A stretch of 64,000 nt of DNA from a phage. The stretch is from the sequence record QB031382.1; one strand, written 5' to 3'. Position numbers and translations under genes: made by a program. Shown in pieces: positions 20,709 to 62,645 of this stretch. The notes beneath the pieces are model-generated. The model saw nothing but the letters and a program-made list of their open reading frames with translations, was not told where the DNA came from and made no database searches. Each line of letters starts with the position of its first letter. The first letter of the stretch is position 1.

Positions 20709-22169
20709 TTATTTAGCGTACTCGATCAATTCTACAGTTTTCCCAAAGCTTGGGATATAATTTTTATTATACCCTTCGGTGAGAACCCATAAAGTATCGT
20801 ACTTTTTCCACTTGTTGTCAACAGCCTTTTGTTCAAAGTTATGCTCAAAGTATAGGTCGGTCAGGACGATGACATCTTTTGCATTTGGTATGTTAGCGTC
20901 CAGATACTCGAACACGCAAGCGGCTGTTGTTCCCCATGTTGAGTGGACCTCATAGTTGATCATCTCGTCGATGTTCCCACGAGTGTATACTTTAACCTCT
21001 CCAACCTCGGTTGACCAGCAGAACATCGTAACCTTGAACTCTTTATACAGATTGCACAACCCAGTGATCTCATTGAACATTTTCTTTAAAGTTCTTTGGG
21101 AGATCGATCCAGAAACGTCTAGAGCCACCACAATATCTATAGTGTTTTCCGGATTACGACCTGGAACAACAACGTGCTGATTCTTGTTTATAGCCCCAAC
21201 TTTTCGCATTGTGCTGGTCAAAGACCCAGATCGGCGACCGGGTTTTCTATAGGTTAGTTCAGCCTTTCGTTTAGACAGCATACGTTGCTTAATGATGTCT
21301 ATATAATTGATTACAGGCTTACCTCTGTTCTTGACAAACTCACGCACAGCCTCAGGGCAACGACCTCCGGAAGCCTGCATTGCTGCTTCCAACATGTCAC
21401 CAGAGTCCTGCATGGCTTGATCTTTATCAGATTGACTGATCACTGGTTGTGGCTGATCATACCCCATCGCCTTTCCAAGATCATCACTAGTGCCACCGTT
21501 ACCACTCATGTGATCATCGGTTTGTCGTTTATCTCCTTGAGAGTTCTCTCCTTTACCGTTCTTACTTTTACCGCTATTCTGATCTCTTTGCTTATCAAGA
21601 ACCGCATAGACGTTCTCAGCAATCCATCCATGGAACCTCATGTCACAGTAGCAACTAGCTAAGAAGCCAAAAGGCTTACCTTTTACAAACGTAGTGCTTT
21701 TCCCCTTCGGGAAGAAAACACAAGGTGGCTTGCTAAAGTCAACCACAAGACCTGTGTTGATAACATGATCACAGGCAATATTGAACAGCTCCGGCTCAAA
21801 GCTTTTACCACGGACCAGATGATCACAGATAATATGTCCCACCTCATGCGATAGAAGAAATGCCACCTCTTTCACAGATTTGGGGGAATAGAAAACCTCA
21901 GCCATCTCAAACTGCTTGTCAGTCAAAGATGCCTTAAGAATGGTTTTGCGCTCATCGGCCAATCCCATAACGAACTCAGGACTGTAATAAATGCGTTTAT
22001 GATCTGTTGCCATGGTGGAGCACCATGTGTGGTTTTCTACGAACTGCAACCCTGATAACAGTGTGCCATAAAACGGCAGTTTTTCAAGAAGATACATACG
22101 TGCTGCCTGCAGCATTCGCAAGGCGTCATCTTTTTGTGCGGCAATGATTTCTGAACTTCTGCTATCCAT
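20709..22169 (-). CDS. vWA-domain protein with N-terminal HExxH metallopeptidase-like domain
   Basis: HEVGH zinc-binding-like motif in N-terminal half; MIDAS-type VVALDVSGSIS (DxSxS) in C-terminal half. Confidence 0.6.
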   Translation of the reverse strand: MDSRSSEIIAAQKDDALRMLQAARMYLLEKLPFYGTLLSGLQFVENHTWCSTMATDHKRIYYSPEFVMGLADERKTILKASLTDKQFEMAEVFYSPKSVKEVAFLLSHEVGHIICDHLVRGKSFEPELFNIACDHVINTGLVVDFSKPPCVFFPKGKSTTFVKGKPFGFLASCYCDMRFHGWIAENVYAVLDKQRDQNSGKSKNGKGENSQGDKRQTDDHMSGNGGTSDDLGKAMGYDQPQPVISQSDKDQAMQDSGDMLEAAMQASGGRCPEAVREFVKNRGKPVINYIDIIKQRMLSKRKAELTYRKPGRRSGSLTSTMRKVGAINKNQHVVVPGRNPENTIDIVVALDVSGSISQRTLKKMFNEITGLCNLYKEFKVTMFCWSTEVGEVKVYTRGNIDEMINYEVHSTWGTTAACVFEYLDANIPNAKDVIVLTDLYFEHNFEQKAVDNKWKKYDTLWVLTEGYNKNYIPSFGKTVELIEYAK

Positions 22170-22202
22170 TAAAACTCCAGAAGGGGCCTTTGGCCCCTGT
22201 CA

Positions 22203-23258
22203 TTATTTAACGTGCTTGAAAATACCAGCCAACTCGGTCATTGTCATGCGGGTGGTCTTCATGAGGTCTGTCATAGCCTTCTCCATAATTGGAGATACTA
22301 CCATAAAGTTACCTTTGGTGAAACCTTTATTCCAGTCGGTAACTAATAGTGGTTTAAGTCCGGACCCGAGACGCTCACCAGTTAAAGCACAACATTTTCG
22401 AATGTATGTGCTCTTAAACTGGCTGAATGACAGATCAACTTTCATACCTGCATCGTAGAACGTCTGGCAATAGAAAGTGTAAGCTTTGGCAATCTCAACA
22501 TCGTCAGGCAGTGCAGGAACCTCTTCTGTAAGCTCTTCTTCGCCCCCTTGAGGCTCTTTTTCCTCTTCGTGGTCTTGTTGTATCATTTCTTCAATCTCTT
22601 CTGTTACAGGCTCGTTTACAATGTCAGAAATGTGCTTGTTGGCTCCACGATTAGCCATGAAGTTTTTAAAATCCTGCATTGGTGACATATCTTCCTCCCA
22701 TTCTTCGTCAAAGAGTGCTAGTTTATCCTCTTCCGTTCCATATTGCAAGATGAAATCTTCAAAAGTGTAATCACCTTTCAATTTCTCCATACGCTCTTCG
22801 CTCAGGTGGAGCATCATCTGCTGGACAATTTTTCGATCAGTTTTGTCTTTAATCAAGATTGCGGTCTTTTTATCTACCAGGCAGTCTTTCAGAGAGTTAC
22901 ACCTCAATCCTACCACACAACAGTTATCAATTGCGTAAGGACCTTCATCATCTATCCGCTCCAGAGATGGGTAGAAAGGATTCCCCAGCCCGTTTTCATC
23001 TGTGTGCATGTCGAAAGGTATAAGGGTATAGTCGCATACCCCCTCTCCTAAAAGTTTTTTACCAAATAGGAGGTATTCTTCCCATGACAGGTTGAACTCT
23101 ATATCTCGTTTCCGTGCATTATTTTGTTTGCGTCTGTATTTTTTGAGCAGGCGCTCTAACTCTTCTGGTGTATAATATTTTTCAAGATTCATGAGTTGTC
23201 TCTTGTGCTCTGTAGGTGGAGAAATCTTATCAAGTGCCTGGGAATATGTCAACCTCAA
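22203..23258 (-). CDS. hypothetical protein with acidic central linker
   Basis: 351 aa; Cys-containing terminal regions with a degenerate HNH-like stretch (ERIDDEGPYAIDNCCVVGLRCN), long Glu/Asp-rich linker. Confidence 0.35.
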   Translation of the reverse strand: MRLTYSQALDKISPPTEHKRQLMNLEKYYTPEELERLLKKYRRKQNNARKRDIEFNLSWEEYLLFGKKLLGEGVCDYTLIPFDMHTDENGLGNPFYPSLERIDDEGPYAIDNCCVVGLRCNSLKDCLVDKKTAILIKDKTDRKIVQQMMLHLSEERMEKLKGDYTFEDFILQYGTEEDKLALFDEEWEEDMSPMQDFKNFMANRGANKHISDIVNEPVTEEIEEMIQQDHEEEKEPQGGEEELTEEVPALPDDVEIAKAYTFYCQTFYDAGMKVDLSFSQFKSTYIRKCCALTGERLGSGLKPLLVTDWNKGFTKGNFMVVSPIMEKAMTDLMKTTRMTMTELAGIFKHVK

Positions 23259-23265
23259 AAACGTG

Positions 23266-23294
23266 TTGACTTTACTCTAAATCCACGATATAGT
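23266..23294 (+). promoter_or_regulatory. sigma70-like promoter in divergent intergenic region
   Basis: -35 TTGACT, 17-bp spacer, -10 TATAGT upstream of gene at 23335. Confidence 0.45.
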
Positions 23295-23334
23295 TCACCC
23301 ATTCGAAAGAAAACGAACACAGGAGTACTTAATC

Positions 23335-24234
23335 ATGGCAAATCTTAACAGCTTTAGCACTCGATGGAAACAAGATATCACAACTAATCTCTCTGCAGGC
23401 GATATCCTTTCTGCAATTTACGAGGCTTTGGATGATAAAGCTACTTCAAAATCGGTTTGTACCAACCCGTTAATTCCTATGGTAATGAAGGTGATTGAGC
23501 GTAGGTTGGTATCCGGATCTGATAAGTGGACATATCTGGATAATGGAGGCCACACTTACTCCAACGGCTATGTAGATATAAAAGTAGAATATGCGGTATC
23601 ATATCGCCGGAGCGGCTCTGTAACTTTCAACTTCTCTGGTGGTTTCCGATCTCTGGCAACTTCACCTTTTGTTTCCTCAGAGCAGAAGTTTGAACTTCCG
23701 TTCCTTTGGATGATGGCTAACGCGACAGGCAAAACCCCTGTAAGCATTCGCGTAAAATACAACTACAACGGATCTAGTAAGATCTATGCCGAGAGTGTCT
23801 CAGCAAGTTTTTATTTTGTGATGGGGGATGGAATCCTCAAACATATAAAGATGTGCGATATGCATGATGTTATAAATGAAGTGACTGATAAGAATGTTCT
23901 GGTGAAGGATCTCAACAATTTTTATACACCGGGAGACTATTACGTCAACCGTCCACTGTGCATCTTTAATGCTGCACACCCTTTAGGTGAGTATTTGATT
24001 GCCAATAGTGATATTGCCAATAACCGCTTCGAGGTAGCAAGAGTACAGAATGAGGTGTTGACATCTTGCAAGAGCGGTGATAAGTTTACCGAAGAAGAGA
24101 TGGGTGTTTTAGAAATGATGGGATATAAGTGTAGCCTTTGGGTAGATGAGGTGTTTAATGACGGCATCTATGGACAGGATATTTACCCGTTAAAGAAGTA
24201 TACTGATTCCAGTTTAATTTACGCGGAGATTTGA
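23335..24234 (+). CDS. hypothetical protein
   Basis: 299 aa, first gene of rightward block. Confidence 0.45.
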   Translation: MANLNSFSTRWKQDITTNLSAGDILSAIYEALDDKATSKSVCTNPLIPMVMKVIERRLVSGSDKWTYLDNGGHTYSNGYVDIKVEYAVSYRRSGSVTFNFSGGFRSLATSPFVSSEQKFELPFLWMMANATGKTPVSIRVKYNYNGSSKIYAESVSASFYFVMGDGILKHIKMCDMHDVINEVTDKNVLVKDLNNFYTPGDYYVNRPLCIFNAAHPLGEYLIANSDIANNRFEVARVQNEVLTSCKSGDKFTEEEMGVLEMMGYKCSLWVDEVFNDGIYGQDIYPLKKYTDSSLIYAEI

Positions 24235-24509
24235 CTATGATGAAGGCATGTGGTAGTGTATACTATGTGGGTGAAAATGTTCAGGCAGACAGTGTGTGGA
24301 AATCCATTAAGTCCACCACCGATGATGCCTTCTTGAGCGGGCTATGTTTCCCCAATCCTGGAGACATTCTCCCTCACCCTGGGGATTTTGTTGTTAACAA
24401 GACAGATGGTTATACTGTGTGCCTGATGGTTGAAAAAATCTTTTTAGACACTAGACACAATCACCGTCTTGTGTTAAAATTTCAAGAATGTAAAATGACA
24501 GTTGCCTAA
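24231..24509 (+). CDS. hypothetical protein
   Basis: 92 aa, overlapping start/stop. Confidence 0.35.
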   Translation: MTMMKACGSVYYVGENVQADSVWKSIKSTTDDAFLSGLCFPNPGDILPHPGDFVVNKTDGYTVCLMVEKIFLDTRHNHRLVLKFQECKMTVA

Positions 24510-24521
24510 GGAGGCCTACCA

Positions 24522-24881
24522 ATGTCTAAAGTTACTTATCGTGCAGCTATTTACTGCAATGAGCAACCAATCAATAGTGATGGTCACTGCTTTTTTAAAG
24601 AAAATCAGTTGGGCTGTATTGCCCTCCTTGATGAAGGGGAAGGTTATATGATTGCATTGACAGGGTTTGAGCCTGAAGCCTTGGAAGCCAATCTGGACTA
24701 CCTGGTAGAGAAGGGTGCTGCAGACTTGGTTGCCAATGGCCTCTCCATAAGCCTTGAAGAAGTGGAGCGCTTCATGGGCAATTACCGTGTAGTGCGTGAG
24801 TTTACTGTCGAGGTGGAAACTCCAGAGTGGGGTAGCACTGAAACTAATGCTGAAGAAAAAGAAGAGGGGGTAGAAGAATGA
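24522..24881 (+). CDS. hypothetical protein
   Basis: 119 aa, RBS AAGGAGG. Confidence 0.4.
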   Translation: MSKVTYRAAIYCNEQPINSDGHCFFKENQLGCIALLDEGEGYMIALTGFEPEALEANLDYLVEKGAADLVANGLSISLEEVERFMGNYRVVREFTVEVETPEWGSTETNAEEKEEGVEE

Positions 24882-25135
24882 AAGTGCAGATCTTGACTAA
24901 TGCCGAGAAGATGTTTATCGAAGATACGCCTTTTGAAACTGGTGAGCTACAGTTTGTATATTTTGTTGACTTAGATAAGGTTTTTCCTGCGCTGAATCTG
25001 GGTTTGGAGAAAGTACCTTATAAAACTCTATGCCAGGTTGTCCGTGCCTTAGCTGCAGATGGGGAGTTCCACACCCTTGAAGATATCCAGACCTATGGGT
25101 ATCTTGAACTGCAACGAGAAGAAGAGGTAGACTGA
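24878..25135 (+). CDS. hypothetical protein
   Basis: 85 aa. Confidence 0.4.
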   Translation: MKVQILTNAEKMFIEDTPFETGELQFVYFVDLDKVFPALNLGLEKVPYKTLCQVVRALAADGEFHTLEDIQTYGYLELQREEEVD

Positions 25136-25137
25136 TA

Positions 25138-25518
25138 ATGGCCCAGTGGAAGACAACAGTTGACCTTCATGATCAGTGGTTAGGACGCATAACTGAAGAC
25201 GGGAAACTGGTAGAGTGGGACAACAAGCATGTTAGCGAGTTGGCAAGTATTGTGGCTGGCAAGTTACGCTCCAAGTTCCCTGAACAACTGGATCCTGATA
25301 GTTCAAAGTTCGATCCTGAGTTGGAGGATGTTGTATACTACTTCGACACCGTGGATGACTACGATGCGTGGTTTGCAGCACTGGAGTTATACCCACAAGG
25401 ATCCGCTATGCGCCGGATGGAAGAAGATTACCCTCCGTGTGAGCAATTCAATAGTGCAATGACTTGCCTTTATGATTGGGCAGATAAGAACCTTGTCTGG
25501 ATTCGGACTGCATTTTAG
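25138..25518 (+). CDS. hypothetical protein
   Basis: 126 aa. Confidence 0.4.
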   Translation: MAQWKTTVDLHDQWLGRITEDGKLVEWDNKHVSELASIVAGKLRSKFPEQLDPDSSKFDPELEDVVYYFDTVDDYDAWFAALELYPQGSAMRRMEEDYPPCEQFNSAMTCLYDWADKNLVWIRTAF

Positions 25519-57123: not shown

Positions 57124-58195
57124 GCCTGGCGGGGCCGAAAAAGGCCCCTCCTGAAACTATGAAAAAATAAAGATAGGTGAATCATCATGATGGAACAAAT
57201 TAAACGCGCTGAGGCTATTAATGGCAATGATGCCGCCAACATGACAGAATGAAAAACATCATTTACAGATTGACAAAACGCAACATCATGATCGCCACCG
57301 TGATCGCTTGCCTTTTCGCTTTCGTGAGTAACGCAACGTTTAACGCCGTGGGCCGGGTGGTGTTTAATGCTGGCAGTGTTTCAACAGCTAACACAATAAT
57401 CGATTGTTTGCAACTTTTCTTTTATGTTGCCTTTCGTTTAAAAATAGCTTGCAAGGTAGACCGTTTTGATTTACCTTTTATTTGTGGCGGCGTGATCGCT
57501 ATCGTATGCTAACAGAGGATCAGAAGAAAAGTGTACGACATAGGGCGGGGCAATAAGGCAACGCCCATTAATGAGGGTGGAATCATGTTAGAAAAAATTT
57601 TCACGGTTGTAGTAGTTGGCATGGCATTATCGGTTGGAGTGGTTGCAACTATGGCTAACATGATCCTATCTTCCCACGGTATCGGGTAAGGTGAAACAAA
57701 TGATCACGAACAAAACAGGAAAAACGGAATTTTTACGCGGCTTGCAAATAGGTAAGCCTGAGATCTGGTATTGCACTAAAACACCACGTGACGAAATGAA
57801 AGATTTTACCGCCACGCTGAAGCGGGTAAAGATATCTATCACGCAGAAAAAGCCTTGATAGTGGTGGAAGGTGAGATCCCTCAAGCCGTTGTTATAGTTG
57901 AGCGTACAGCATAGTTTAATCTATACCGTACGCCCCATTAACTAACAAAGCATAAGCAGGCGGCGGTGACCGCCTTGAACGCAACAGAAAGAGAATAGAA
58001 AAGCATGAGAAAGGTAATTATCACCATAGGGATCGTGGCGGCAATGTTGGCGATCTTTCCCTTTATGGTTAGGTATGTGCTGATCAGTATTGTCCTGATA
58101 GTCAGTGGTCTATTGGAAACGGTTGGCAACTGGTTTTAAGATAATAAACAGGGCTTGCAATGGTCCTGTTTTTTGTTATACTTATCTCACGGGTG

Positions 58196-58239
58196 GCACC
58201 TGGCGACGGGGGGAGACAATCACCGGGGGTGCCCGTTAT
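58196..58239 (-). repeat. GC-rich repeat element, copy B (inverted)
   Basis: Reverse complement of 58211-58239 equals 50103-50131 exactly; lies just upstream of promoter at 58259. Confidence 0.6.
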
Positions 58240-58258
58240 ATAAAAACTATAAAAACAG

Positions 58259-58287
58259 TTGACATCTGCCAGGTGGTTAGGTAACAT
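58259..58287 (+). promoter_or_regulatory. sigma70-like promoter with leader hairpin
   Basis: -35 TTGACA, 17-bp spacer, -10 TAACAT; hairpin GGGCA-AAAG-TGCCC. Confidence 0.45.
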
Positions 58288-58341
58288 TTATCTTGAAGGG
58301 GCAAAAGTGCCCACACAACAACCAGAAGAGAGGAAAACATT

Positions 58342-58614
58342 ATGTCAAGCTGGATTAATCAAAAAGTTGAATCACGTTTTAATGCTATCTGGGATCTCAT
58401 CGAAAAAGAGGACGGAACATCAAGCCCTTACCTCAATAATCTTGAATTCCATTTTGTGGAAGCGATGAACGCAGAACATGATCACAAAGGTGGCGCGGAT
58501 GAGTTCGCTCAAGGGTATGGCTTCAACAATGCCAACGAAATGATTGAAGCGGTTGTACTTCAGGCTGAGGAAGATTATCAATTAAAAACACTTGAATTTT
58601 GCCGCCGTAAGTAA
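58342..58614 (+). CDS. small hypothetical protein
   Basis: 90 aa, RBS AGAGAGGAAAA. Confidence 0.45.
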   Translation: MSSWINQKVESRFNAIWDLIEKEDGTSSPYLNNLEFHFVEAMNAEHDHKGGADEFAQGYGFNNANEMIEAVVLQAEEDYQLKTLEFCRRK

Positions 58615-58675
58615 TAAGATAATGACACGGGCCAAAAGGCCCACCAAACCAGAACCCCATAAAGAGGAAAACATC

Positions 58676-58939
58676 ATGAAACGCCTTGATCAGCTCAAAC
58701 TAGTTCAGTACATGGCCTACAAAGTTATTGAAGTCCAAAAAGGTAGTAAAAAGGAGGTTTGCGAGAAAGCGTATAAGATCTTTACTCGTAAAAAAGATGA
58801 TTGGATGTTACGCCAGACCAAAAAGGCTGATATCCTGGGGTACCTGGAAGAAGAGATCCGGCTTGAAGAGCAAGAAGAGATCCGCCGCAGTGAGGCAGAT
58901 TATCAGGCAGCTTGGGAAAGCTGGATGAGAAACAAATAA
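58676..58939 (+). CDS. small hypothetical protein (Lys/Glu-rich)
   Basis: ATG after RBS AAGAGGAAAA; leader hairpin GGGCC-AAAA-GGCCC. Confidence 0.45.
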   Translation: MKRLDQLKLVQYMAYKVIEVQKGSKKEVCEKAYKIFTRKKDDWMLRQTKKADILGYLEEEIRLEEQEEIRRSEADYQAAWESWMRNK

Positions 58940-58951
58940 TAAACATTATCA

Positions 58952-58978
58952 AGGGGCTTAGGCCCCTTTCTTTTTGTT
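58952..58978 (+). terminator. rho-independent terminator closing the rightward small-gene block
   Basis: Stem AGGGGC-TTAG-GCCCCT followed by TTCTTTTTGTTTG. Confidence 0.65.
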
Positions 58979-59583
58979 TGCTCTTTTCCTACCATAAACG
59001 GCCCTACCTGGCAAGTGGAATAATTGACGAGCCATTAATCCCGCACACTGTACAAATATACATATAAAATAACTATTGCATAATCTTTCATCTTGTGGTA
59101 GCAGGGTCATTTTTACACGTTTTTCCTTCCAAAAATGCACGTAATGCAGCTATTGCACAAAATTTAACCTGATGCACATTTTCAGCATACTGTCAACAAT
59201 TAAAAACCCTTATAAATCATACACTTACACAAACCAAAAAGCGTGTCCTACGTGAAAAATCGGGTGTAACTATAGCCGACAGATCTCAGAATCCACGTAC
59301 GATCACCATTCTATAGCCTGCTAAGTATTTATTCCAACCACAGAATAACGGAATAGTCAATACCTGTACAAAATAATTATTCGTATAAACTGCATAACAT
59401 AAATTTTCTCATGTGTAAACATTTTTCGTAAACAGTCCGAAATTGTCACGATAGGTTACTATAATCAGAGAAATCTTTAGTCGTCTAATGTTTACTGCAC
59501 ATAACTATACTGACTGGAATCATTAGATGACTAAGAGAAAGATAAGAAATAGTTAACAATGTAATTGTTTTACCTGTAACAAT

Positions 59584-59760
59584 AAGGCAACTATGCAAAC
59601 GAATGTCATGGCGCGACGGAGTCGCGACATAATATAAAAGCAGTAACCATCACCCCCGTGATAGTTTATCTGCAAACTATTGATCAGATCATAGTTGCCT
59701 TAGATTTAGTTAATCATGACATAATAAGCAAGGCAACTATAGATCTGATAATAGTTGCCC
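59584..59760. repeat. cluster of four AGGCAACTAT motifs in alternating orientation
   Basis: AAGGCAACTAT at 59584(+), 59691(-), 59730(+), 59751(-); last pair forms 10-bp inverted repeat with 10-bp spacer; 19-bp direct repeat ATGCAAACGAATGTCATGG at 59595 and 59852. Confidence 0.55.
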
Positions 59761-59790
59761 TGCTTTTATATTATGTCATATATTATTAAC

Positions 59791-59850
59791 CTGTTAATTG
59801 TCAGCTTATTGGCTGTTAGCTTGTCAATTGTTAACTTGTTAATTGTTATC
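59791..59850. repeat. four tandem about 15-bp repeats (TTGTYAATTGTYARC)
   Basis: tgttaattgtcagc / ttattggctgttagc / ttgtcaattgttaac / ttgttaattgttatc. Confidence 0.5.
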
Positions 59851-59878
59851 ATGCAAACGAATGTCATGGCTTATCATC

Positions 59879-59986
59879 TTTGTGTAAACTGTCAGGGTGT
59901 AGACTATTCAAGGTGTAAATTATTCAGATGCAAACTATCCAGGCGTAAACAGTCTATGCGGGAACAATCTGCACGTGAACAATGAA
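59879..59986. repeat. six to seven degenerate tandem about 16-bp repeats (iteron-like)
   Basis: gtgtaaactgtcagg / gtgtagactattcaag / gtgtaaattattcaga / tgcaaactatccaggc / gtaaacagtctatgcg / ggaacaatctgcacgt. Confidence 0.5.
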
Positions 59987-61482
59987 ACATGAAATAATAA
60001 CAGTCGTTATTGTATCGAAAGTGTATAAGGTGTCAGATTATGGCATATTGTGTGACATTGTGTCAGACAAGTTTTTCTCCTCTTTGTCAAGTGCTGCATG
60101 TAAAATTTACAAACTGGTATGGTAGCATTTTTGCGGCCCTGTTTACATTCAGGAGTGTATGTATAACCCTTGTTGTGTGGGCGTTTAGACGTCTGGACGG
60201 TCAGAAGTCTGCAGGTTAATATCTAATCTATTGGTCGCTAACTATATCCCCACAAATAATAAGAAATGCAATTGTTATATGCGTAAACAGTAACTCATGT
60301 TATCAATCCCTGTATGTATCGCCAGTGGTGCGCATAATGGGTATTATGTTAAATTGCCCGTAATGATAACGATTCTCACAATGATAGGTATTCTCATTCA
60401 CCCGCCCAGGATAGGTTGCAAATGTTGTGCCACTGTGTGAACGGCCTCGCCTATTAATTTGCCTCACTGCCCCGATATTTGAGAATTATTATAAGAATGA
60501 GAAGTATTCCCATTTCGTCCGCCTGGCAGCACTCCTGTAGGACAAGCACAAAATCGTGGCATAACTGTACCTGTTCAGATATTTCTGGCTGACTCTTCAG
60601 GTCTGTGTGGGAAAAGCCAACCTCTCCGGCGGCGGGGAGTGGGTCAATTAAAAAATTTACGTGGTGTATGAAGCGCTCTTCAGGTAAGGCAGGTATTATG
60701 GGATGAATCACTCTTCAGGTGATGATATTTGTAGGTGTGATATTTGCTGGAAAGCCAGATATGACGGGACTCCCGGCGGGGCAGGGGTAGTACAGACAGG
60801 GAAAATGTGGAGAATGTGGTGGGTAAATTGATCAAGCAGGTAGAGTATGGAATATGTTACAGGTATGTTAAATATGGAGGTAAGATATTTGTAAGATTTG
60901 TGTGTAAAATCAAAGACTTAAGTAGTGTTGTGGTATTTTCTATAAATAATTCAAGTTTAATAGGGAATATTTGCCTCTATCCACTTTGTATGGTAACTAT
61001 ATTCTAATTGAATTGGTTTACAAGTGTATATAAAGTATACAAATTAAAGATACAAGAAACCCCCCTCCCCCTTCGGCTACCATTCACCTTTTCCTCTGAC
61101 TGGTACTTAAACACTTATTCAGACTCTTCAGGTTATCACTCATATATCATATGGCAGTGACTGGTGTCCTCCGGCCCCTCTTTCGTCACCCGTCCGCTTC
61201 GCCATGCTAATGCCATAGCTAACTGTTCGGTTGTTCACCCTGTTCACTCAGGTGTATCTCCATACCCCTTCAAACCGAAGAGAACAGAAAACCCGAATTA
61301 CTCGGTAAAAGAAAAGAGAAGAACTTAATTTTATCAGGATAGGCAAGAATGTCAAGGCATGACTGCTCACTAAACAAGCAAACAGTCATGTGTGGGAGGT
61401 AAGTGATTGTGGTGGTAGGAAATTTAGTTGAAAGATGTGTTATAGGTGCTTCCAGCACTTTAGCCTGGCAGCTAATTGTGTG

Positions 61483-61698
61483 TCAGTCCAGCGGTTCATC
61501 CTCTACTTCACTGAAATCAATGTTCAGGGTCTCTTCCCAACCATCGATCTCAGCACAAGAGTGGAGTTCTTTAGGGTTTACTCCCAAAGCCTCAGCAACA
61601 GAGTCTATATTTAACACCTCTGGCAGGTATGATTCATCGAATTCAAGGTAAATCAGGCCACGAGTGTTGTCAGCTCCACCAAATATTTCTATCTTCAT
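61483..61698 (-). CDS. small acidic hypothetical protein
   Basis: 71 aa; RBS GAGGAG upstream of ATG on minus strand. Confidence 0.4.
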   Translation of the reverse strand: MKIEIFGGADNTRGLIYLEFDESYLPEVLNIDSVAEALGVNPKELHSCAEIDGWEETLNIDFSEVEDEPLD

Positions 61699-62280
61699 AA
61701 AATCTCCTCTGGAAATGAGAGTGTGAACAGGGTTATACGTTCCAATGCGCAGGAATTTATATACGTTTGCCTCTTCAGGCCATGCTTTAGCATGATAAAC
61801 TTATGTGGGCTCGGTGCTTCATAGTCTGCCACCTCTGAACTCTTCGTGCTCGGGCAGGATAGAGAACCAGATGTCTAAGATGTCTTCCCACGTCAGGTCA
61901 TCAGCCTCAGGGTCTAAGTTTTCCTCTACGGTCACTTCTTCAGATGTCTCTTCAGATGCATGTGTGTTGGTCATGTTCCACCCGTTAGTATTCCGGCAAC
62001 AGCCGCTATGGACGTAATGATCATCAGGATCACCACTAAAACTTCGGACAATGTTTTCATTGCGTATTCCATATTCTTCAAACGATGTGAGGATACTATC
62101 ACAGGAGCGGTAATGTGTCAACAGAAACGCCGCGAGGGTTGGTTAAAATCCGAGCGTATGGTGATTTGGGTCAAAACGGACGTGCGTTCTCGCTACGCTC
62201 GAAATAGAGAGTTGTTTACAGGCCGCCCTTAAACGCTCTGTAATAAGATTATCCATCTAAGGTATGCAATCGTGCACCAG

Positions 62281-62308
62281 ATAAAGAAAAGGACGCCACA
62301 GAGCGTCC
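62281..62308 (-). terminator. rho-independent terminator (minus strand)
   Basis: Stem GGACGC-CACAGA-GCGTCC with T-run on minus strand (plus-strand ATAAAGAAAA). Confidence 0.5.
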
Positions 62309-62333
62309 TAGGTGCCTTAAATTTGATATTTTG

Positions 62334-62645
62334 CTATACCCATGAGGGCTTGTCCAGGTTGGAGTAACTGAAAGGGGTCAAAAGGTGACTGTCAAAATCT
62401 TTCAAACTGTCCAGATCTTTTTCCTCGTCCTGACACCATCTGTGTCTACATTTATTGTTGTAGTGCATGGAATGCATAGCGTTCTGCAACTTAATAGGCA
62501 CAAGTGATTCAGGAGTAGATAGAATTGTTGGGTATGCCAGAACTATCTCAAACAATGGAAACACATCGAAACTAAAGTCTACCTCTGCAGAGGTTGATGG
62601 CATATAGGAGTATTTAGCCGCCCTTGTAGACATAATCCACCTCAC
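62334..62645 (-). CDS. hypothetical protein
   Basis: 103 aa ORF ending just upstream of minus-strand terminator. Confidence 0.35.
   Translation of the reverse strand: MRWIMSTRAAKYSYMPSTSAEVDFSFDVFPLFEIVLAYPTILSTPESLVPIKLQNAMHSMHYNNKCRHRWCQDEEKDLDSLKDFDSHLLTPFSYSNLDKPSWV

Follow-up and report, generated by a model that had tools for sequence, protein, structure and literature searches.

Terminal repeats are already known in several phages of the genus Vequintavirus, the rV5-like myophages of Escherichia coli. Gotham was reported to have terminal repeats of 459 bp and one specific packaging start, the repeat having been recognised by its raised coverage (PMC7471380), and short terminal redundancies of 458 bp were described in EdH4 and HdK5 (Korf et al., PMC6563267). 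These reports give the length of the repeat, without its position in the grey box that was marked "non-coding" and "contained no ORFs" (open reading frames) in rV5 (PMC3606486), and without flanking motifs (PMC7471380, PMC6563267). Outside the genus, a direct terminal repeat (DTR) of 514 bp was found in KPP-1, a Klebsiella phage of the genus Mydovirus, from an approximately twofold coverage and PhageTerm, and packaging was assigned to the T7 type (PMC9862379). Mydovirus is a sister genus in the subfamily Vequintavirinae. The paper on the Certrevirus CB7 is silent on termini. The locus studied here is the gene-free stretch at 58970-61482 of a phage sequence of 64,000 nucleotides (record QB031382.1; this whole stretch of DNA is called the window below), which the original prediction, made from the letters of the window, had proposed as a replication origin, a packaging (pac or cos) site or the physical ends of the genome. 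Judging from its sequence, the window is Vequintavirus DNA; about 120 phage records matched 2.6 kb around the region at 90-97% identity, and nearly all of them were Vequintavirus.

Placement of the predicted terminal repeat in the window

The gene-free region is, with high probability, a terminal or concatemer-junction region of a genome with fixed ends and a short DTR of the T7 type. The predicted DTR occupies 60066-60523 (458 bp) and is 95.7% identical to the repeat of Gotham (MT682716), whose record was opened at the repeat and carries it as repeat_region at 1-459 and 136567-137025. The two sequences align from end to end with exactly matching boundary bases, the complement of window position 60523 being base 1 of Gotham and the complement of 60066 its last base, and the difference between 458 and 459 bp results from a 1-bp deletion in the window copy. 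The placement of the physical ends at this site is supported by this homology to relatives, and since the DTR is homologous to their termini, the cutting sites of the terminase would by implication also lie here. The repeats of Gotham, EdH4 and HdK5 all agree with the window segment in full-length homology, length (458/459 bp) and boundaries; in the records of those phages there are two terminal copies, whereas the window holds one internal copy. The DTR is probably seen once and internally because the assembly was collapsed or circularised.

The same boundary recurs in other records. The base equivalent to 60066 is the exact record end in HdK5, EdH4, ECP2303, ECP2309 and YN3 and the record start in Pr121LW, i.e., the DTR boundary is the exact opening or closing point of at least six GenBank records, which originate from several laboratories, and the segment is present twice in HdK5, EdH4, ECP2309 and YN3 as well as in Gotham. 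Fixed, non-permuted ends that are reproducible between isolates were found in these at least six records, and also in the agreement of KPP-1 with the phages DP and KP12 described below. In an alignment of 13 genomes, in which identity was calculated per 50-bp bin, the DTR was conserved at about 93-99%, and it contains a 30-bp island common to KPP-1.

The original prediction had taken the density of repeats in the region as a pointer to the genome ends. The ends indeed appear to be nearby, but the repeats that it listed all flank the DTR and none is inside it. Of the three roles that it offered, physical ends are upheld by homology, and the headful pac and cos variants are not, as the ends are defined and carry a 458-bp repeat. 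Within the DTR an imperfect 34-bp tandem repeat with a period of about 18 (ATGATAACGATTCTCAC / AATGATAGGTATTCTCATTC) lies at approximately 60364-60397 and is annotated as repeat_region in nomo, magaca and Alma. The Shigella phage CM1 (MK962749) shows a tandem duplication, aligned to about 60000-60523, whose unit consists of the 66 bp preceding the DTR plus the DTR itself; its sequence after ...CGTCCGCC begins again at GTATCCAGTG. Both terminal repeats kept in tandem (a repeat of about 524 bp with another left boundary), a mis-assembly, or a real duplication could account for this.

Conserved junctions and the proposed packaging scheme

The DTR of KPP-1 lies, like that of the window, at a convergent, gene-poor boundary. 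The same 514 bp are annotated as repeat_region at the start of the record of phage DP, and the record of KP12 starts there. The bulk sequences of Mydovirus and Vequintavirus were not alignable with blastn, and both junctions of the DTR are homologous nevertheless. In both genera the DTR starts with A|G(G/A)CGGAC (A|GRCGGAC) and ends with GTAAATTT-N11-CTTGACAA(A/G)GAG..TTGT(C/G). Both junction sequences also occur in the Seunavirus GEC_vB_MG, in which the boundaries were placed by alignment. Further features shared by the window with the Mydovirus phages KPP-1 and DP are inverted pentamers, CCTGAAGWG boxes, the island GTGTAAACTGTCA and, lying on the same side, a module that forms hairpins. On the other hand, the Mydovirus DTR is 56 bp longer, the distance from the last gene to the DTR is only 334 bp, there is no counterpart of the block at 61050-61450, and the C-rich tract belongs to the other strand.

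The inverted pentamers stand directly outside the DTR in the arrangement TGYYA | DTR | TRRCA, which is realised as TGTCA|DTR|TGGCA in Vequintavirus and as TGCTA|DTR|TAGCA in Mydovirus and Seunavirus. In the window, TGTCA is at 60061-60065 on the plus strand, immediately before the DTR, and was invariant in the 13 genomes. Its inverted partner TGGCA (TGCCA on the minus strand) is at 60524-60528 on the plus strand, and the predicted cut there lies inside a CCTGG (Dcm) site; natural variants of this right pentamer, read on the minus strand, are TGCCA, TGCTA and TGCCT. A Dcm-like C5 methyltransferase is encoded by relatives (bas56_0071 of AlexBoehm). The DTR boundaries of the window are also at the centre of 7-bp palindromes, GTCA|GAC (60062-60068) and GCC|TGGC (60521-60527), and in rV5 only the central base of the right one is changed (T to A), so that the palindrome is intact. 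These palindromes were dropped as a general rule for the cut sites, since Mydovirus and Seunavirus do not share them.

The linear molecule has 58970-60065 (1.1 kb) on the inner side of one end and 60524-61482 (0.96 kb) on that of the other, with both terminal operons pointing outward. Each junction of the replicative concatemer would then hold one copy of the repeat. The terminase would nick opposite strands at the two DTR boundaries, each time just 3' of the outward-lying TGYYA, i.e., at TGTCA^G between 60065 and 60066 and, on the minus strand, at TGCCA^G between 60524 and 60523. The 3' ends would be extended by the phage DNA polymerase, by which every packaged genome would receive the full repeat at both ends. 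Staggered nicking followed by fill-in is the classical Watson/T7 scheme. The inverted symmetry of the pentamers is what would be expected if one nuclease nicks opposite strands at both boundaries. In this scheme, which we infer from the junctions, the CCTGAAGWG boxes, the GTAAAC-type units and the hairpin module described in the next section would serve as recognition or positioning sites for the packaging machinery, possibly also for replication or transcription factors; for the flanking motif arrays, recognition in packaging is the most likely role suggested by their sequence and position.

Motifs on the two sides of the repeat

The non-coding stretch is bounded by the end of a rightward unit at about 58.9 kb and the beginning of a leftward unit at 61.48 kb. 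A bidirectional intrinsic terminator was found at 58951-58968, where the original prediction had a terminator of the last rightward gene at 58952; it ends the rightward replication/early operon, borders the non-coding DNA, and is also annotated in Murica, Gotham and Alma. The first leftward gene, likewise predicted to begin at 61483, was borne out at 61483-61698 (PHROG 12108). The absence of a convincing ORF between the two held as well, in that no ORF of 58970-61482 was backed by any gene caller or protein family, and searches of six ORFs of the stretch against PHROGs and Pfam matched no family. The whole 2.5 kb was left empty by gene calls on 10 independent metagenome, Sequence Read Archive (SRA) and genome assemblies, whose contigs all had the region in their interior and none of which broke at the termini, and small ORFs in it are annotated inconsistently between the annotators of related records. 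ORF preservation was compared in 13 genomes, in which the DNA is too conserved to discriminate; one ORF of 39 aa was kept in the others and is broken in the window. ARAGORN detected no tRNA or tmRNA in the window, and Rfam gave no match at E<=1 in 58000-62500. A blastn search of the whole stretch against 5,426 complete E. coli genomes yielded zero matches, which indicates that the sequence is not host-derived.

The repeat density of the region is far above chance. Exact 10-mer pairs numbered 34 in direct orientation, compared with 5.5 +/- 3.1 in dinucleotide shuffles, and 23 in inverted orientation, compared with 9.3 +/- 4.0. All repeats listed by the original prediction are present, some of them with small corrections to their coordinates, which are given with each element below.

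On the left side, the non-coding DNA at 58970-59580 (left-end unique DNA in the linear molecule) was about 83-94% conserved and contains GTAAAC motifs at 59413 and 59428. A 14-bp inverted repeat with a 30-nt spacer, TTAGTCGTCTAATG (59477-59490) and CATTAGATGACTAA (59521-59534), was invariant in 13 of 13 genomes while the surrounding DNA varies. It is followed by a module at 59593-59870, present in 118 of the approximately 120 records, between perfect 20-bp direct repeats ATGCAAACGAATGTCATGGC at 59593-59612 and 59851-59870; the predicted direct repeat is thus real, and its length of 19 bp had to be extended by one. The GC palindrome CGCGAC-GGA-GTCGCG is at 59612-59626. The four motifs in alternating orientation were located as AGGCAACTAT at 59585 (+), 59691 (-) and 59731 (+) and GGGCAACTAT at 59751 (-), the last two of which form the 10-bp inverted repeat with 10-bp spacer. 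The record of FV3 (JQ031132) is devoid of exactly one repeat-to-repeat unit (window 59613-59870, 258 bp) and therefore of the whole AGGCAACTAT hairpin module, which could be a real palindrome-stimulated loss or an artefact of cloning or assembly.

A long hairpin or cruciform of 152 nt can be formed within the module at 59626-59777 (minus strand), its outer stem being a perfect 18-bp inverted repeat, GACATAATATAAAAGCAG, and four AGGCAACTAT copies serving as stems. The z-score of the DNA fold was -9.4 and that of a 133-nt RNA from the minus strand -7.5, and in each of 12 genomes compared the RNA was more stable from the minus strand than from the plus strand. The minus strand also has a promoter-like site at 59797-59770, whose -10 is extended (TGn-CATAAT), and a terminator-like hairpin with a U-run at 59666-59645. 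According to this model, the module may encode a minus-strand small RNA (sRNA) of about 130 nt, from approximately 59764 to 59632. A role at the DNA level, with two 26-bp palindromes 60 bp apart as protein-binding sites, would explain it just as well. In KPP-1 there is a comparable module with a 21-bp stem and several hairpins (z = -11.7), which lies on the same side of the DTR and about as far from it but has no sequence similarity, and Seunavirus carries a homologue of the KPP-1 module.

Between the module and the DTR, identity was only 26-55% in most 50-bp bins of 59800-60049. The four tandem 15-bp repeats of the original prediction correspond to about four units at roughly 59791-59850, for which Tandem Repeats Finder (TRF) gave 2.3 copies, and its six to seven iteron-like repeats to an array of seven degenerate units of 15-16 bp at 59879-59986 on the plus strand (TRF, 4.5 copies with 73% identity). 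The core of the units is GTAAAC(A/T)(G/A)T, and the array differs greatly from genome to genome in copy number and length. Its first unit, GTGTAAACTGTCA, forms a conserved island, which is also found in KPP-1 and Seunavirus at about 100-180 bp from the DTR. GTAAACWRT occurs eight times in the window compared with 2.5 expected, four of the eight being in the region. A scan of IMG/VR with the 14-mer TGCTAGACGGACAG returned mostly chance matches on unrelated contigs and was not used. Small GC-rich, hairpin-forming insertions of 30-55 bp differ between genomes at about 59715, 59780 and 59850 and at 60545-60640, for example AGAAACACCCGAAGGGGTGACC..GGTCACC behind the hairpin module, or CTGCAAGGACTCTAGCTGAAAGCTAG..CCCTTCGGG directly behind the DTR; their appearance is that of miniature elements, either mobile or derived from slippage.

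On the right side of the DTR, 60524-61040 was about 81-98% conserved, and four minus-strand CCTGAAGAG boxes lie in the right-end unique non-coding DNA at 60593-60601, 60676-60684, 60711-60719 and 61124-61132. They correspond to the repeated CTCTTCAGG units of the original prediction, of which those at 60593 and 60676 were in place and the other two were off by 2-7 bp, their positions being 60711 and 61124; the GTATA..TATAC palindrome predicted near 61025 is at approximately 61024-61040. An additional, fifth copy is at 61771 (box 61771-61779, minus strand), where it lies about 40 nt past the stop of the upstream one of two leftward genes, in the spacer that separates them. CTCTTCAGG occurs six times in the 64-kb window compared with 0.55 expected, and five of these copies are clustered in the region on one strand. 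CCTGAAGWG boxes are on the same side of the DTR and in the same orientation in Seunavirus (four compared with 0.04 expected), KPP-1 (three) and the window (five, minus strand). Two of the KPP-1 boxes are at gene ends or in intergenic spacers (positions 1690 and 1742 of locus L018). Its action may therefore be on the transcript and not in packaging alone. Three other explanations were rejected: its spacing to any -10-like hexamer is inconsistent for a part of a sigma-70 or T4-like promoter, only CTCTT is in common with a lambda boxA-like site, and the copies do not consistently form a conserved hairpin.

Further to the right, multi-genome comparison revealed a highly conserved non-coding block of about 345-400 bp at 61050-61450 (minus strand). 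Identity over the block was at least 96% in all 118 matching records and at least 99% in 23 of them, while in a control segment from the helicase gene 16 records were down at 90-95%, i.e., the block is as tight or tighter. Its core at about 61395-61050 was almost invariant in ten further independent assemblies. A single pairwise profile against AlexBoehm did not single out the block (98.5%, 95th percentile). The block contains a near-consensus sigma-70 promoter at 61355-61328 on the minus strand (TTGACA-16-TAAAAT preceded by TG, 11 of 12 matching), and an 8-bp inverted repeat, CATGACTG/CAGTCATG, abuts its -35 on the upstream side. A hairpin with a T-run at 61305-61293 and then about 255 invariant nt follow, and conservation ends at a C6TC5 tract at 61060-61071, unique in the 64 kb, which reads GCCGAA-G5AG6-UUUCUU on the minus strand. 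The tract is mostly G5AG6, with G5AG7 in ERZ16268092 and G5AG5 in ERZ16268251, and APECc02 and nomo differ as well; this variation could be either homopolymer slippage in vivo or sequencing error. RNA folding of 61040-61322 gave no signal on the two strands (z = -1.0 and +0.1), the block had no Rfam match, supported ORF or E. coli homologue, and a scan of IMG/VR for a 20-mer of the G-tract returned one contig and no added diversity for covariation. We read the block as a putative discrete transcription unit or cis-element.

Alternative readings and comparison with other systems

Several points weigh against a terminal region with fixed ends. The ends of this genome are predicted ones, assigned by homology, the Seunavirus boundaries are known from alignment rather than measurement, and the 7-bp palindromes at the cut sites are not conserved in the two other genera. 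The duplication in CM1 could mean a different boundary in that phage, as well as a mis-assembly, and the roles of the boxes and iterons, like the nicking scheme, are what we infer rather than observe. Moreover, rV5 was described as circularly permuted (PMC3606486), four bovine Vequintavirus genomes as "circular permutated" by PhageTerm (PMC8407724), and BpE1AUH as headful (PMC13211470), which would be consistent with a pac site near here from which packaging starts without fixed ends. However, such a headful phage is quite improbable: the end bases of at least six records, which come from several laboratories, are identical, repeats are annotated at both ends, a twofold coverage step was reported over the KPP-1 DTR, which PhageTerm called DTR/T7-type (PMC9862379), and the Gotham repeat was likewise found from its coverage (PMC7471380). 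Both junctions are in addition conserved across genera. The evidence for a DTR was given more weight than the reports of permutation, as permuted ends would not be expected to give boundaries that coincide between isolates and between genera. Short terminal repeats often escape detection in transposase-based libraries and in low-coverage Sanger assemblies. A cos site was also considered and rejected, as the ends of the relatives carry a duplicated segment of 458-514 bp. The many indels and small GC-rich hairpin insertions between genomes, together with the inconsistently annotated, spurious small ORFs, might be expected of a neutral spacer of decayed genes in which repeats accumulated without function. 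Almost no credence can be given to such a spacer, which is already contradicted by the conservation data: large parts of the region are conserved as much as, or above, essential genes, and its motifs and architecture are common to three genera whose sequences otherwise align barely or not at all.

A replication origin of the iteron type, which could coexist with the DTR, is the less likely of two further possibilities and on the whole improbable. In this case an initiator would be bound at 59580-60000 by the GTAAAC-type units and the AGGCAACTAT palindromes, with melting of the AT-rich DNA next to them. The seven tandem units, two palindromic sites of 26 bp at 60 bp from each other, a GC content that is the lowest in the window (0.349, at 59001-60000), and minus-strand promoter-like sites facing into the array (60066-60037 and 60036-60009) are all consistent with it. 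T7 itself has a promoter-driven origin. A T7-like replisome also fits, i.e., a primase-helicase and a DNA polymerase in the annotation of AlexBoehm and gp4-like and PolA-type proteins in rV5 (PMC3606486). However, the copy number and length of the array vary widely among genomes that are otherwise 90-95% identical, and the entire AGGCAACTAT module is missing from the record of one viable phage, FV3. DnaA boxes were represented by a single relaxed one in the region, with no cluster, and were below chance in the window overall; the flanking genes matched PHROGs of unknown function without a Pfam domain, and no initiator domain or gene was recognisable next to the region. In rV5, a search for the origin by GC/AT skew found only turning points at changes of transcription direction, to which the authors attributed them, including one at rV5 104425-105475 (PMC3606486); this interval overlaps the rV5 counterpart of the region, and the composition profile of the window agrees with their attribution. 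Somewhat better placed, although still doubtful, is a non-coding RNA locus independent of packaging, with the hairpin RNA of about 130 nt (approximately 59764 to 59632, minus strand) and/or a unit of about 270 nt running from the promoter at 61355-61328 to the G5AG6-U at about 61050. For the latter unit speak the near-consensus promoter with its TG, the identity of at least 96% in 118 of 118 records, tight as the helicase control, and the end of conservation at the G-tract/U-run, and for the former its extended -10, terminator-like site, fold (z = -7.5) and the more stable minus strand in 12 of 12 genomes. Against an RNA locus stand the lack of an Rfam match at E<=1, the lack of a thermodynamic signal in the 283-nt unit (z = -1.0), sequence variation too scant for covariation, and the fact that a DNA cruciform or operators explain the hairpin module equally well.

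The tract at the end of the conserved block resembles CSB II of human mitochondrial DNA (CSB, conserved sequence block; GGGGGAGGGGGGGTTTG), which is a primer site with an R-loop or hybrid G-quadruplex (PMC4176368, PMC5027508). The layout of a G-run, an A and a second G-run on the non-template strand, downstream of a promoter and followed by a T-run, was found at 61071-61054 of the window (minus strand GCCGAA-G5AG6-UUUCUU) as the sole such tract in the 64 kb, with the promoter at 61355-61328 about 255 nt upstream of it, and the replisome is of the T7/mitochondrial type. However, the tract of the window would be transcribed by E. coli RNA polymerase, its counterpart in Mydovirus and Seunavirus belongs to the opposite strand, and it has only 11 G, whereas CSB II variants with 8-11 G caused almost no extra termination in vitro (PMC5027508). 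The comparison is purely a resemblance. A transcription-primed origin at about 61395-61050, made up of an operator-like inverted repeat, the promoter, the 255 invariant nt and the G5AG6-U tract, at which host RNA polymerase would stall at the G-tract and an R-loop or hybrid G-quadruplex would prime a replisome of the T7/mitochondrial type, together with a AGGCAACTAT module encoding the sRNA of about 130 nt, is conceivable by this analogy and very unlikely.

As for the terminal repeat, the general comparison is with T7, which has a 160-bp terminal repeat with the short repeat arrays SRL/SRR alongside and pacB. The window region is similar in its short exact DTR, in the short-repeat arrays inside each end, in the T7-type call by PhageTerm (for KPP-1) and in the T7-like replisome. 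It differs in that the phage is a myovirus of about 137 kb without a phage RNA polymerase, whose genes point outward at both ends rather than inward from one, and there is no sequence similarity between T7 and the region; the role of the repeat arrays is only putative in both systems. Repeated terminase-binding boxes beside the cut site are also present in the cosB of lambda (R sites) and the pac of P1 (TGATCA/G hexamers). Similarly, the window has short boxes repeated within about 200 bp of the predicted cut, and its module carries GATC sites. Those phages have cohesive or headful permuted ends in place of a 458-bp direct repeat, and the boxes of the window are at most putative sites of the small terminase subunit (TerS).

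In the literature examined, the placement of the DTR in the rV5 non-coding box, the conserved junctions with their inverted pentamers, the motif architecture common to three genera and the highly conserved promoter unit appear to be undescribed. The opening point is arbitrary in most of the approximately 120 public Vequintavirus records, and the genomes are still called circularly permuted in several papers; the DTR would provide a common and biologically meaningful start point for genomes relevant to therapy. It also leads to the prediction that packaging is of the T7 type and not headful, in which case the risk of generalised transduction would be low. The TGYYA pentamers, CCTGAAGWG boxes, GTAAAC units, hairpin module and promoter unit are candidate cis-elements for direct mutation, which could reveal the way in which short terminal repeats are made and recognised in a large myovirus. 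EdH4 is reported to have been edited already with a Cas13a-based method (PMC9712115).

Two observations on related records may be added. In AlexBoehm, the DNA polymerase gene (21753-25372 of locus L017, which would correspond to about 35.9-39.5 kb of the window) is annotated as two joined pieces with a putative homing endonuclease gene inside, which points to an insertion of an intron or intein-like kind within the replication module. Nineteen MG0656xx records labelled as Campylobacter phage (A135, A142, C2 and others; UNVERIFIED) were 91-94% identical to E. coli Vequintavirus in the region and are probably mislabelled or contaminating coliphage.

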